NCBI GenBank assembly: GCA_963833225.1 | Contig: CAWHXD010000019.1 | Location: 704,001 to 768,000, forward strand | Direction of reading: 5' to 3' | Length of the DNA: 64,000 bases | Origin: an uncultured Chloroflexia bacterium | GTDB taxonomy: Bacteria > Chloroflexota > Limnocylindria > Limnocylindrales > CSP1-4 | Part shown: one piece after another, positions 49,604-54,534 of the stretch | Numbering within the stretch: the stretch's first letter is position 1 | Layout of the letters: each line of letters starts with the position of its first letter | The notes under the pieces: generated by a model | The model's input: the letters and a program-made list of their open reading frames with translations, nothing else | Databases searched by the model: none | Told to the model about the DNA's origin: nothing | Translations under genes and position numbers: made by a program

Positions 49604-51711
49604 GACCAATGGCTCCCCCAAAGAACGGCAGGTCGAGCTCGTCGTCGGGCGCGATGACCGCCACCTTCGGGATCGTCTTCGGCCGCATCTTCTTGCAGTC
49701 GGGGCAGGCCGGCGTCCCGAACGGCACCTTGACCCGGGCGCGGGGCGACATGCGGTAGGGCTTGTGGCGCGGGTCGGCGCATGACCAGGTAACGGTCTTC
49801 GCGTAGGTCGCCTTGATTGTGAGCGGCGTCCGGGGCAGGTTCGCGTCGGCGTCCCACTCGGGGACGAGGTCAGGCCGGACGCCGGCGACACTCTCGGCGG
49901 CGGTCGTCCGCGCCGTCGAGCACCGCTCGCAGCGCGTCCGGCGCTTCGTGCGCTGACCAACCTCGGCCCTCCACTCGTGCTGGCAGCGGTGGCACAGCCA
50001 GCGAGCGTCGTAGTCGGAGCCGGCGGTGACGACGGCGATGTCGCGCTCGTTGCGCTCGAAGTCCCAGTCGCGGGCGATCTCGGGGTAGTCGGTGAGCATG
50101 GTGCCCGCGACGTCGGCCGAGATCGTGCGCTGGCCCGGCTTGAACCGGAACGTGAGCGGCGGGAAGCCCAGCCGCCGGCGCTCCTCGTTGTCCTCGACGA
50201 TCCGCCGCCAGACCGACTTCACCTTCGCGCCCGCGAGGTAGGCCGGCCGCGCCTCCTGGTCCCGGTCGCGCGCCGCGAGCAGCAGCCGCGACAGCGATCG
50301 GAGCTCGGTGGGATCGTCCTCGCCGGCTTCCCAGTCGGGATTCACGAACGCTGGACCGACCTCGCGGAGGTGTTCCTTGATGATCGCCGCGAACTCGGCC
50401 TCGCCAGCCTGGCCCGAAACTCCGAGGCGCGCATGAGGTTCAGGACCATCTGCAAGCGGCGGGCGTTGCGGAACCGGAACCGCCGGCGGTCGGTCAGCTT
50501 GGTGTCGATGAAGTCGAGCAGGCCCTCGGCCGGGCTGTTGTTCCGGGGATGGTCCTTGAACCCGGGCACGCGCAGCGCGATCTGCGCCCGGACGCGGTCG
50601 GTGTTCGCGCCCATCCACTCGATGATGTTCCCGCAGTCGTGCTCGTCGGCGAACGTGAGCAGCGCCTCCCAGTCGTCCTCGGAGAGGAACGCCCGCCCGA
50701 GCAGCGGCTTGATCTCCTCGTTCTCGGCCGGCCAGCCGTCCTTCGCAGCCCAGGCTTCGAGCGCGCGTTTCAAGTGGAACTCGCAGGCCACGAACGTGGC
50801 GTTCGGCCAGCGGAGCATCGCCGCCTGCTTGATCGCCTTCGCGCCGTCCGCGACGACCCACTCGACATCGCCCGGCAGCTCGCCGAGGAAGTCCGACCAG
50901 GACTCGCGCGTCTCATCGGGCGAGAGGTGCAGCCCCCACGCCCGGAGCGGCCGCTTGGGGTCGTCGCCGCCGACTGCCGCGAGCACTGCACCGGCGCGCT
51001 TGTTGGGGTCCCAGCGCTCGCCGTGATCCACCGCGTCGTAGGGGAACAGATGCAGCGGCAGCGAATCGAGGACCAGGATCTTGGGCCAGCGCTTGGGGCC
51101 GAGCTTCTCGTCGATGAGCTCGCCGAACAGGTCGATGTAGCGACCCGAGAGCCCGAAGGCGCGGCTGGCGTAGCGGAACCCGTGCTCGTCGGTCTCGTAG
51201 CGCTGGGCGTCGTAGCGGACCTTCTGGGCCGCCTTGCGGCCGGAGTCGCCCGACCCGATCAACGCGAGGACCTTGCCCATCTCGTTCGCGCTCGTGTCGA
51301 AGCCGACCGGCGTGAGCGGTCCCTGTGCCACGCCCGGCACCACGTCGCAGGCCGAGCAGGCCACGCCCAACGGGTGGCCGCTGCACGCCGGCCGTCGCGG
51401 CTCGGAGAACGTGTGCGGCTTGATCGCCGGGTCGTCCGGGACGCACTGGAACCGGGGCCGGCGGAAGGGCCGGGGTCAAGTCCCAGCACGTGGTGTCACA
51501 CCTCGCGCCTGATCAACTTGCCATGAGCAACGGCTGGCTCGCCTCCTCGGTCGTGGTGACGGCATCGATGGCCGCCATGGTCTCGGGCCGGAAGTAGCGC
51601 CGGCCGTCCTGCCACTCGTCGTCCTGCTCGGCGAGGATCATGCCGACGAGGCGCAGCACGGACGCCCGATTGGGGAAGATCCCGACGACCCCGGTCCGGC
51701 GCTTGAAGCTC

Positions 51712-52798
51712 TCATGTCAAGTCCCCGGTCCGTCGGGCGTCCCGGAGCATGGTTCGGTAGATCGCGTCGGAGAGGTGGCGCTTGAGGACGCGCATAGCCT
51801 CTCGACGAGTGTGGCCATGTGCGCGGGCCTGGTCGTGGATCTGGCGGGCGCGGGGTTCGTAGCGGAGCTGGATCATCGCGATGCGGTAGATGGCGGCGTT
51901 GAGGCGCCGGTTGCCGCCGCGGGAGAGGCGGTGCCGGACGGGCGCGTTCTCGCCCTCGCCCGAGCTGGCCGGGATCGGCGCGGTGCCGTTGAACCGGGCA
52001 AAGCCGGCCTCTGTGAAGCGTCGGATGTCGCCGACCTCGACGATGATCTCGGCCGCGGCGCGGGGCGCGATGCCGACGAGCTCGGTGAGCGTCGACTTCG
52101 TCTCACGCGACCAGGGTGGTGAGTTCGGCGGTGGCCGCCTTGTCCTGCTCGAGGACGTCGCGCAGCATCGCCACGCGGTGCTCGATCAGCCGCAGCCGCA
52201 GGGCGACCGTGGGGTCGGTGACGCCGGAGGTGTCGAGCCGACGCAGCGAGTTCACGCGAGCGCTCACCGTCTTCGCTGGCCGGAGCTGGGCGCGCAGGTC
52301 CTCGGGCAGGTCGTGCACGAGGGCGTCGAGCTCGCCGAGGAGCTGGACGCGGACCTTGGTGAGGGAAGTGCGGGCGTTGTGCCACAGGGCGATCCGGTCG
52401 CGGACCGAGTCCGGCGCCGCCGATACCGCGTGCTTGAACGCCCGAGCGAGACGAGGGTTCGTCTGCGTCTCCGCGGCGATCCGGTGTGAGTCGAGCCGGT
52501 CGGACTTGCCCTCGTGACGGCCGCGCTGGCGGGCCGTCGTCTTGTGCGGCGGCACGTCGCGAACATCGCATCCGGCCTCGACGAGGAACTCGGCCAGGTG
52601 CCGGCCGAGCCCGCTGGCGCCCTCGACGCCCCAGCGATCGGCCGGGCCGAGCCCGGCAGCCCACGCCAGGCCGGCGTCATGCCCTTCGCGCGTGTTCGGG
52701 AAGTGGGCGTGTCCGAGCTCGCCGCCGCGCGAGTCGAGCACGGTCGCCGTGAACGTCTTGCGGTGCGGGTCGACGCCGACGATGTTGGGTGCCGTCAT
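51712..52798 (-). pseudogene. IS110 DEDD recombinase, +1 frameshift near 52105
   Basis: VGVDPHR, WGVEGASG, GKSDRLDS; downstream frame gives GTAPIPASSG and RLSRGGNRRLN. Confidence 0.9.
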
Positions 52799-52819
52799 GT
52801 AGTCGCCTCCAGGGTTCTG

Positions 52820-53030
52820 ACCGTCGTGGGGGAGGGACCGCGCGACGACATCCCAGTCGAGGGATCGACGCTCTCATCAGGTCAGCACGGTCCTCGGGCG
52901 ACCGTGCCGGGGTCGACACTTCAAACGGAACACCGCCACCAAATCGAGGTGGCGCCGGAGATCTCCTTCGAGTCAGGCCTCGGCACGGTCACCCACCGTA
53001 CGGGCCGCCGTCGCGGTCCTTCCGGCAGGG
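52820..53030 (-). ncRNA. Putative IS110 bridge RNA
   Basis: Two stem-enclosed loops; guides match the target (AAGGAGATC; CGTTTGA) and the donor junction (ATGAGAGCGTC vs ATGAGAGCTTC); ends approximate. Confidence 0.8.
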
Positions 53031-54534
53031 ACCACTTCAACACCAGGATCTCCTTGTTGAGCCGCTCGAGCGGGTTCGTGCTGCGGATCTTCGCCCGGTG
53101 GGTCTCAGGGAAGCTGAAGTGGGCGAGGAGATCGGGCTCGGCGTCGGCGAGCAGCTCGGCGACCGCCGCGAACCGCGGCCGGAGGCCCTCGAGGACCGCG
53201 TCGACCTGGCTGCGGGCCGACCGCTCGTCGGGCTGCTCGAACACCAGCCGGATGGCACTCGCGACCATGCTCCGGGCACTCCGGGGCACGAGGTCCTGGG
53301 CGTTGCGGGTGAAGTGCACCCGGCACCGCTGCCAGGAGGCTCCGAGCAGCTGCTCCCGGATCGCCTTCACCAGTCCGGCGTGGTCGTCGCTGATCACCAG
53401 GCGGACGCCCCGGAGGCCCCGCTCGACACAGGCCGCGGATGAAGGCTGGCCAGGCTGAGCCCTCGTCGTGCCCGGGCGACAGCTCGACTGCCAGCACCCG
53501 GCGCTCGCCACTCATCGCGACCCCGACCGCGACCAGCGCCGCCATCGACACCACCCGACCTGCCTCACGCACCTTGAGGTACGTGGCGTCGAGCCACAGG
53601 TACGGGTACGCGGTGTCACCCAGCGGCCGGCTGCGGAACGCCTCGACCTCGGCGTCGAGCGCCGCGCAGATGCGGCTGACCTCGCTCTTGCTGATGCCCT
53701 CGATGCCCAGGGCGCGGACGAGGTCGTCGACACGCCTCGTGGACACGCCCGACACGTACGCCTCCTGGACCACGGCGAGCAGCGCGCGCTCGGCTCGTCG
53801 CCGCGGCTCCAGCAGGCTCGGGAAGTACGAGCCGTCGCGGACTCGTGGGATCGCGAGCTCGACGGTGCCCACGCGGGTGTCCCAGCGCCGATCGCGGTAC
53901 CCGTTGCGACGGGTGAGGCGGCGCTCCGGATCCCGCTCGCCATGGGGGAGGCCGGTGAGCTCGGTCACCTCGGCCTCCATCACCGCCTGGGCGAGCACCC
54001 GCACGCCCTCGCGCAGAAAATCCTGGTCGCCCTCGGCGATCGCCTTGCGCACCGTGTCCTAGCACGGCCATCCTGTCCTCGGCCATCTCGGTGTTCTCCG
54101 TGTCGTCGGTTGCTAGTCCAACGACGCGAGGATGACGCGGTGGCCGTTTCCGTTCACGGCCTCAGCGCTGTGACACCAAGTCTGGGGACATGACCAGGGC
54201 CGGGAGCCCCAGTCCGGGTTGCCGTGGATGCGGATGGCGCCCCGGTGACCCTCGTCGCAGGCGATCGGCCGGTTCGGGATGGCGAGCGGCGGCCGGCCGC
54301 CGATCCGGCGGGCAGGCGGCGGAACGAGCGCGAGAGGCGGCGGGAGCGGGAGCGCGACGGCCATCGGCCAGACCGTGGCAGATCCGCGTGCCACCTTCCA
54401 TGACACGGGAGACCCACCGGGCCTACTTCATAACGAGGAGGTTTCACACACTGGGTGGCGCAGTTGTACAGCCACTCAACTGCGCCACCGGGTGTGGGAA
54501 ACCCAGCACCGGTCGTACTCCGGCGGTGCGGGAC

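Follow-up and report, generated by a model that had tools for sequence, protein, structure and literature searches.

How does an insertion sequence (IS) come to lie precisely between two codons of a conserved motif in the transposase gene of another one? This question is raised by a stretch of 64,000 nucleotides (nt), here called the window, from an uncultured Chloroflexia bacterium (Limnocylindrales; CSP1-4; assembly GCA_963833225.1, contig CAWHXD010000019.1, positions 704,001-768,000 of the forward strand). It contains an IS110-family element of 1342 bp (51705..53046, with the core dinucleotide counted once) inside an IS256-family element (51468..54201). Both lie on the minus strand, as do all features described below unless a plus sign is given. 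We consider it very probable that the inserted element is a decayed copy of an IS110-subgroup lineage that moves, or has moved, by bridge-RNA-guided recombination into transposase codons, a reading built on sequence comparison between the window and relatives of the element.

The element, its host and its predicted bridge RNA

The host element, about 1392 bp long without its insert, carries a Mutator-type DDE transposase gene (PF00872) between terminal inverted repeats (51468-51500 and 54169-54201; 33 nt, 79% complementary), which places it in the IS256 family. Its IS256/Mutator-family gene is split between positions 345 and 346 of the 379 positions of the PF00872 profile in Pfam, that is, between the codons ...NKEI / KRR.... 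The 5' part (53047..54052, profile positions ~18-345) ends with ...STNPLERLNKEI at the insertion, and the 3' part (51513..51704, positions 346-378) resumes with KRRTGVVGIFPN.... The profile match comes in three pieces covering positions 18-378, and the gene carries a separate frameshift of its own at ~53450-53511, which an initial annotation of this DNA had missed. The E of the NPLE motif we take to be the catalytic glutamate of IS256 transposases.

The inserted element agrees with the IS110 subgroup in every sequence-level feature tested. Both junctions show a short TC core, the empty site contains it a single time, and terminal inverted repeats are absent. The left junction reads ...AACAAGGAGA-TC followed by CTGGTG..., with the core at 53048-53047, and the right junction reads ...ATGAGAGCT-TC followed by AAGCG..., with the core at 51706-51705. 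The target thus consists of AAGGAGA-TC (left target, LT, plus core; 53047..53055) and TC-AAGCG (core plus right target, RT; 51700..51706), and the right end of the element is the left donor (LD) ATGAGAGCT at 51707..51715. A non-coding left end of 248 nt, predicted to encode the bridge RNA (52799..53046), extends from the core to the ATG at 52798; this position upstream of the gene is the IS110-subgroup arrangement, whereas IS1111-subgroup elements have their non-coding region downstream. Only 8 nt separate the stop codon from the right end of the element.

The recombinase is broken. Its N-terminal part (52103..52798) contains the DEDD RuvC-like domain (PF01548, E 9.6e-17, residues 7-152 of a 231-aa open reading frame, ORF) and runs into a premature stop from a frameshift, and its C-terminal part (51712..52101, stop TGA at 51712-51714) matches PF02371 (Transposase_20, E 5.8e-16) in a different frame. 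The two are contiguous in intact orthologues, and a single base at 52105 or 52107 is missing from related contigs. Intact recombinase genes of 359-363 aa occur at the related loci L032, L033, L035, L038, L040 and L041, and an intact orthologue matches the solved transposases ISCro4 (E 1.3e-9) and IS621 (E 1.6e-8).

Which features of the left end point to a guide RNA? In the account of IS621 and its relatives given by PMC11208160, the first internal loop of such an RNA reads the target and the second the donor, 4-7 nt on the 3' side of a loop pair with the top strand, all four pairings include the core, and LD position 7 is unusually tolerant of mismatches. The window left end can be read in the same order: a 5' stem-loop (GGACCGC/GCGGCCC, 53002..53019), a target-binding loop module (52896..52994; outer stem 52981-52994 with 52896-52909, inner hairpin 52948-52954 with 52934-52940) and a donor-binding loop module (52832..52895; outer stem 52885-52895 with 52832-52843). 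On the 5' side of the first loop, the left target guide (LTG) AAGGAGAUC (52960..52968) has the same sense as LT plus core, which it matches at 9/9 positions (DNA AAGGAGATC), and would therefore pair with the bottom strand. On the 3' side, the right target guide (RTG) CGUUUGA (52921..52927) would pair with top-strand TCAAGCG; CGTTTGA agrees with the reverse complement of TC+AAGCG at 6/7 positions, and the odd one places rU opposite dG as a wobble.

The second loop would hold the guides for the element's own ends. The left donor guide (LDG) AUGAGAGCGUC (AUGAGAGCgUC, 52867..52877; DNA ATGAGAGCGTC) matches the right end plus core ATGAGAGCTTC at 10/11 positions, the mismatch falling on LD position 7. 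The right donor guide (RDG) ACUGGGA (52851..52857), not seen by the initial annotation, is the reverse complement, without mismatch, of TC+CCAGT, which nine relatives have where the left end starts, and forms five Watson-Crick pairs and two G:U pairs with the window copy's own TC+CTGGT. It pairs at 7/7 positions in the nine loci whose right donor (RD) starts with CCAGT (among them L040, L041, L057 and L095) and in a tenth, L068, through a matched change with G on both sides; in the remaining loci pairing runs through wobbles, and L086 reaches only 5/7.

Relatives of the element were gathered from three sources: a DNA search across 61 related genomes, a protein-pattern scan of one genome per species, and a scan of metagenomes that used six aligned intact proteins and yielded 58 loci. 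The pattern scan gave 14 loci, which belong to metagenome-assembled genomes (MAGs) of Limnocylindrales and other Chloroflexota and to one Ilumatobacter, one Acidimicrobiales and one Actinomycetales MAG. With an nhmmer profile built from 13 left ends, 44 left ends were found among 83 sequences searched (four extra weak matches were the window region itself on the opposite strand), and 41 of these 44 loci have at least one readable flank.

The 250-nt left end of the window folds more stably than 200 of 200 shuffles (z = -4.55), and the stem arms at 52896-52912 and 52978-52994 are 17 nt long and 88% complementary. This very stable single-sequence fold nests the donor module in a long-range helix and leaves the guides paired, and for this reason we relied on alignment-based structures. 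RNAalifold recovered the 5' hairpin and both outer stems from 13 as well as from 34 left ends. In the 34 left ends, 97.2% of the cells of the two outer stems (27 pairs) are paired and eight pairs have changed on both sides, a count taken on the alignment that yielded the structure and hence somewhat favourable to it. None of 500 shuffles attained these values, and sliding the partners by 1-3 columns left 32-44% paired. We also considered AAGGAG within the LTG as the ribosome-binding site of a small ORF; it is followed by no start codon and lies inside a conserved stem-loop, and this candidate was rejected.

Could the guide matches be a product of chance in a G+C-rich non-coding end? Such DNA repeats short motifs, and one of 100 window shuffles did contain at least two copies of the 9-mer AAGGAGATC. 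In the window, however, the 9-mer occurs twice in 64 kb, where 0.17 copies are expected, and the two copies (junction and left end) lie 87 nt apart on the same strand. Three more guides stand at the expected places, and guides covary with flanks across relatives, as described below. We regard the probability of chance matches as negligible.

The initial annotation had described this left end as an IS110 bridge RNA with two loops whose guides spell IS256 codons. The strings that it quoted (AAGGAGATC, CGTTTGA, ATGAGAGCGTC and TTGACA), the enclosing stem and the frameshift in the recombinase all proved correct on the minus strand, and folding of the left end, which it had proposed as a check, agrees with it both in stability and in the compensatory changes of the outer stems. 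TTGACA (51715..51720), present in every right end found, is a candidate -35 box that doubles as the last codons of the recombinase. With the ends joined it would stand 17 nt upstream of TGAAGT (53034-53039), which follows TGT as in an extended -10 box; as long as the copy is integrated, GCTCAA occupies the -35 place. This arrangement is consistent with TTGACA acting as a -35 box after end-joining.

Guides and targets in the relatives

At 38 of the 41 loci with a readable flank, the element lies at an IS256-type motif (ER[LV]NKE[IVT] / KRR...V) or an ISL3-type motif (NNLI / KR.KR..F). The break points in Pfam profiles are always the same: 345/346 in PF00872 for the IS256 type (L036, L038, L075, L081, L078, L074 and the right flank of L080) and 220/221 in PF01610 (DDE_Tnp_ISL3) for the ISL3 type, where the left flanks of L041, L080, L101 and L086 end at position 220 of 240 and the right flank of L041 begins at 221. 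Two of the three exceptions, L040 and L069, occupy the same intergenic site, with a class II aldolase gene on one side and an EamA transporter gene on the other, and since these are ordinary genes the lineage is not exclusive to transposase genes. In the third, L098, a 15-nt right-end fragment (...TGACATGAGAGCT-TC) lies between an ISL3-like gene (...ASNGPTGAVNLL) and the left end (1190-1225).

The guides follow these flanks. The 9-mer AAGGAGATC stands at the left junction of 22 of the 23 loci that have the LTG AAGGAGAUC and a readable junction, L072 being the exception. Where the guide differs, the flank often differs with it: L040 combines LTG AAAGAGAUC with flank AAAGAGATC, L074 has G at position 7 of both guide and flank, and L078 has A at position 6 of both. 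L041 pairs its RTG GCGUUUGA with TCAAACGC at 8/8 positions, and its LDG AUAAGAGCUUC has changed together with its LD ATAAGAGCTTC. A common G-to-A change of LDG and LD is also present in L080 and L086, with position 7 still mismatched. On the right side, L075, L081 and L071 combine RT AAACG with a U-type RTG, and AAACG targets occur only with such guides; the RTG/RT counts are C:G 20, U:G 9, U:A 4, U:T 2 and C:A 0. The ten distinct LTG/LT combinations give 72 Watson-Crick matches out of 90, compared with 60.4 after shuffling, and 8 of 100000 shuffles attain 72, a figure that is not a true probability because the loci are related. The same scaffold thus carries at least nine different left guides, which flanks in two transposase families and one intergenic site follow, imperfectly.

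These comparisons bear out what the initial annotation had advanced: altered guides do lie at correspondingly altered flanks (L040, L074, L078, L041, L075, L081), other copies do interrupt the LNKEI / KRR codons, and L072 alone of the loci that share the window's guide deviates at the junction. Its description of the element as an IS hyperparasite stands as a pattern, in the 38 of 41 loci and in the flank comparisons given in the next section. It needs qualifying in that the habit is not exclusive, given L040 and L069, and in that the window copy itself is dead.

The recombinase protein might itself read the DNA, with the guide-like strings as by-products such as captured remnants of targets. 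Support for an RNA is absent from the Rfam scan and the contigs described below, and before 2024 the site specificity of IS110 elements is not known to have been ascribed to RNA. Against this, the strings sit at a depth of 79-127 nt in the element, in conserved stems with compensatory changes, and they covary with the flanks among relatives that share 63-80% protein identity. The layout is also the one demonstrated by experiment for IS621 (PMC11208160). We therefore judge recognition by the protein to be extremely unlikely.

Several loci show irregularities of their own. In L098 the fragment resembles the remnant of a tandem or donor-like junction, and the LTG AAAAGGAUC is unmatched in any flank seen. 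L080 is flanked on the left by an ISL3-type gene (PF01610, to position 220; junction at ~688) and on the right by one of the IS256 type (PF00872, starting at position 346; 2021-2212); a chimeric assembly, homologous exchange between two copies, or recombination via the shared right half-site alone are possible origins. L034 (~1100-1120) has a normal IS256 right flank, but its left end is short of the first ~19 positions of the profile, and upstream IS256-like sequence (to the ...STNP codons) abuts it. In L072 (1-44) the right flank is likewise normal and the left side abnormal. The recombinase frame of L039 (2501-3784) is 428 aa long and runs into the C-terminal part of the host IS256 (...LLMAS), which implies a frame change near the end of the recombinase and makes a fusion product possible. 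The locus L004/L028 (G021:C248) is a degenerate relative without the whole bridge-RNA region; IS256 5' sequence is joined to the interior of the recombinase at a common CACTTC, a layout consistent with a deletion, and the right junction reads GAGAGCC-TC-AGGCG.

Within the LTG, position 3 covaries with the variable base of the RTG (columns 85 and 135 of alignment A3, window positions 52966 and 52925; GC 19, AU 7, GU 6). This could reflect an LTG-RTG pair in the free RNA, or both guides tracking the third bases of the two target Lys codons. A structural helix of columns 83-85 with 135-137 was accordingly dropped as a candidate, the third bases accounting for the covariation equally well.

One insertion or many

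Does the shared site reflect targeting, or a single event long ago? The IS110 element might have entered an IS256 element once, and the composite then have spread by descent or through trans-mobilisation by an intact IS256, in which case the common site would be uninformative on targeting. Trans-mobilisation is conceivable, as the host IS256 has kept both of its inverted repeats, and many loci do share both site and orientation.

Nine complete loci (36 pairs) allowed the element to be compared with 400 nt of upstream and 160 nt of downstream flank. Elements are more alike than upstream flanks in 36 of 36 pairs, eight of which (all with L035) rest on short alignments, and more alike than downstream flanks in 29 of 36; in the other seven the downstream flank is at least as similar as the element, as spread of a composite would allow. 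Against such spread, hosts such as those of L036 and L042 are 65-73% like others, and their elements are 85-95% alike. L032 and L042, which lie in one MAG, have elements 94.8% identical in hosts only about 70% alike (flanks 69% and 73%). The ISL3 hosts belong to another Pfam family, and L040 is intergenic with a matching guide.

Relatives also hold empty sites. Of 70 genomes of the genus, 16 contain the uninterrupted target, with 27 exact 14-mers in all, and the reversed control gave none; five of six 14-mer sites that were examined are uninterrupted IS256 genes. In four of four RNA-library runs, contigs of IS256 relatives pass from 51704 straight to 53047 and leave out exactly 1342 bases, with two letters shared or ambiguous. 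Because elements are more similar than their flanks, because one MAG holds copies in different hosts and because empty sites exist, the sequences favour repeated, orientation-specific insertion over the spread of a single composite, which we consider very unlikely.

A number of observations nevertheless weigh against guided insertion by a bridge RNA. Both the eight short upstream alignments and the seven downstream pairs just mentioned belong here. The loci are kin, and fewer independent events lie behind the counts than the figures suggest; contigs from metagenomes, moreover, can be chimeric, as L080 may be. Pairing is imperfect in places: the left flank of L072 matches its LTG at only 5/9 positions, L044 has CC in place of the core and one further mismatch, the right target of L040 is paired at 5/7 positions plus one wobble, and ISL3-type LTGs reach only 4-7/9 if Watson-Crick pairs alone are counted, or 7-8 if wobbles are included. 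L044, L075, L078, L080, L081, L086 and L101 have a mismatch at LTG position 3.

The RNA itself adds to these points. Prediction of the free RNA leaves the RDG and the 3' end of the LDG partly paired. A scan of 51400-53400 against Rfam 15 with E up to 10 gave no family match and only four weak unrelated ones (best E 1.4), none of them in the left end. Contigs of the four RNA-library runs cannot show RNA ends, strand or level. Three of these runs have thin contig cover over 52720-52983, which is uninformative on transcription, and the contigs of run X19 over 52833-53076 prove only presence in that library. No run contained half of the sampled words; the best DNA run had 0.23 of them and the RNA-library runs 0.05-0.11.

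In the source genome, finally, a genome-wide search found no second copy of the element, and the assembly, which is 86% complete, has no exact match to the intact 14-mer target and four matches with one mismatch. The only other IS256-like gene noted in this genome (L045) has a diverged motif. Since its recombinase is frameshifted, the window copy is a fossil that is unable to move itself. Two contigs of the source genome (C7:56110-56574 and C8:256840-257304) carry another IS110-family gene, with 98.4 bits each and 420-aa open frames, which is unrelated at the DNA level.

Among the neighbours of the host element, an ORF just downstream of the IS256 (50342-51370) has a weak Mutator/MULE match (PF00872, E 2.2e-5, positions 198-282) and may be a second, very diverged transposase relic. 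It is overlapped in another frame by a 442-aa ORF (49533-50861) with two DUF4379 treble-clef zinc-finger repeats (E 1.8e-21), and one of the two may be spurious. On the plus strand, just past the IS256 inverted repeat, lies a hipB/hipA-like pair (54455-56136, +), in which an HTH_31/HTH_3 protein (54455-54901) overlaps the start of a HipA_C-domain protein (54898-56136, E 5.4e-47). A search for close relatives of the element on sequenced plasmids found none: 1550 records matched, all below 60% identity, with 34-39% the best among the matches listed.

A predicted mechanism and its significance

How would an intact member of this lineage move? The element would be excised as a circle, whose joined ends would set TTGACA 17 nt before TGT-TGAAGT and drive transcription of the ~250-nt left end. 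The RNA would fold into a 5' hairpin and two stem-enclosed loops, the second of which would hold the element's joined ends through LDG AUGAGAGCgUC and RDG ACUGGGA, and the DEDD/Ser recombinase would then swap strands at the TC core. On the target side, the 14-mer AAGGAGA-TC-AAGCG encodes K-E-I-K-R, which belongs to the most conserved C-terminal motif of IS256-family transposases. Because the 14-mer encodes part of this motif, the element would land, in one orientation, inside other insertion sequences and truncate their transposase. In sister elements the guides appear to be retuned to the analogous N-L-I-K-R codons of ISL3 transposases. The anatomy, the agreement and covariation of guides with flanks, the recurrent insertion and the empty sites are shown by the sequences themselves. 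Transcription, promoter function and catalysis we infer from the sequence, together with the loss of host-IS activity, which would follow only from the truncation of the transposase.

The closest known system is IS621 of E. coli, a member of the IS110 subgroup (Durrant et al. 2024, PMC11208160; structures 8wt6 and others). It likewise has a DEDD recombinase with a C-terminal Ser domain, a non-coding left end before the gene with 5' hairpin, target loop and donor loop in this order, a dinucleotide core, tolerance of a mismatch at LD position 7, and a -35 box (here a candidate) in the right end. It differs in its core, CT instead of TC, in its recombinase, which the E-value of 1.6e-8 shows to be only distantly related, and in its targets, which are repetitive extragenic palindromic (REP) elements rather than protein-coding DNA of other ISs. 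Unlike that of IS621, the window RDG is a continuous 7-mer beside a very short apical hairpin.

Landing of IS110-type elements in other mobile elements is already known. As cited in PMC11208160, IS1383 has IS1384's inverted repeats as its integration site (Mueller et al. 2001), and IS4321/IS5075 use the inverted repeats present in transposons of the Tn21 family (Partridge and Hall 2003). IS1383 is thus an IS110-family element with a specific target inside another insertion sequence, as described there, and differs in using the terminal inverted repeats of one IS instead of the codons of a conserved catalytic motif in many diverged IS256 and, after retuning, ISL3 elements. The IS1111-subgroup system also places an IS with a DEDD transposase into other mobile elements in one orientation and with an element-encoded RNA guide; its non-coding region lies downstream of the gene, it has subterminal repeats, and it targets the non-coding end of a transposon. 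With ISPpu9/ISPpu10 and further IS110 members that target REPs, the window lineage shares a multicopy, dispensable genomic repeat as landing site; REPs, in contrast, are repeats of the host, whereas the repeat used here is a selfish element that moves between genomes. What is new is the targeting of conserved transposase codons in two IS families. Our literature searches turned up no IS110-type element aimed at the transposase codons of IS256 or ISL3, with the limit that supplementary target tables of PMC11208160 and PMC11187229 may list cases.

In itself the window is modest biology, a dead element within a dead element. Yet the locus illustrates cleanly how bridge RNAs are reprogrammed in nature, and the intact orthologues (L032, L035, L038, L040, L041), which come from high-G+C bacteria, are predicted to be new bridge recombinases with a TC core whose natural targets are known. 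The earlier cases hit non-coding ends (IS1384, Tn21 family), and a target in a coding motif stays recognisable across hosts that are only 65-80% identical.

Does this point to a principle? IS256 and ISL3 genes have the half-site ATC-AAR-CG (I-K-R) in common, so that the element could change from one family to the other through a few substitutions in its left guide. Uridines of the guides stand opposite synonymous positions: in the right target this is the third base of Lys AAR, and in the left target of the ISL3 type these are positions of Asn AAY and Leu YTN. G:U wobble may widen the range of codon variants hit by one guide. The U:G 9 and U:A 4 counts fit this idea; LTG positions 3 and 6 are often mismatched, and the wobble picture is not clean. 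If it is true, an RNA guide can track a protein motif and not just a fixed DNA word.

We tentatively propose, with somewhat less than even confidence, that a bridge-RNA clade in Chloroflexota and Actinomycetota has specialised as a parasite of other insertion sequences via the DNA of the conserved N-x-x-I-K-R motif of DDE transposases, with wobble at synonymous sites, and could act as a brake on IS256 and ISL3 elements. IS256 and ISL3 drive genome change in many bacteria, and an element that inserts into them is therefore of ecological interest. The target is multicopy, dispensable and horizontally mobile. If the proposal is true, the element would therefore gain a refuge as well as a means of transport and would at the same time shut down its carrier, and the lineage could represent a natural programmable brake on IS256 or ISL3 expansions.

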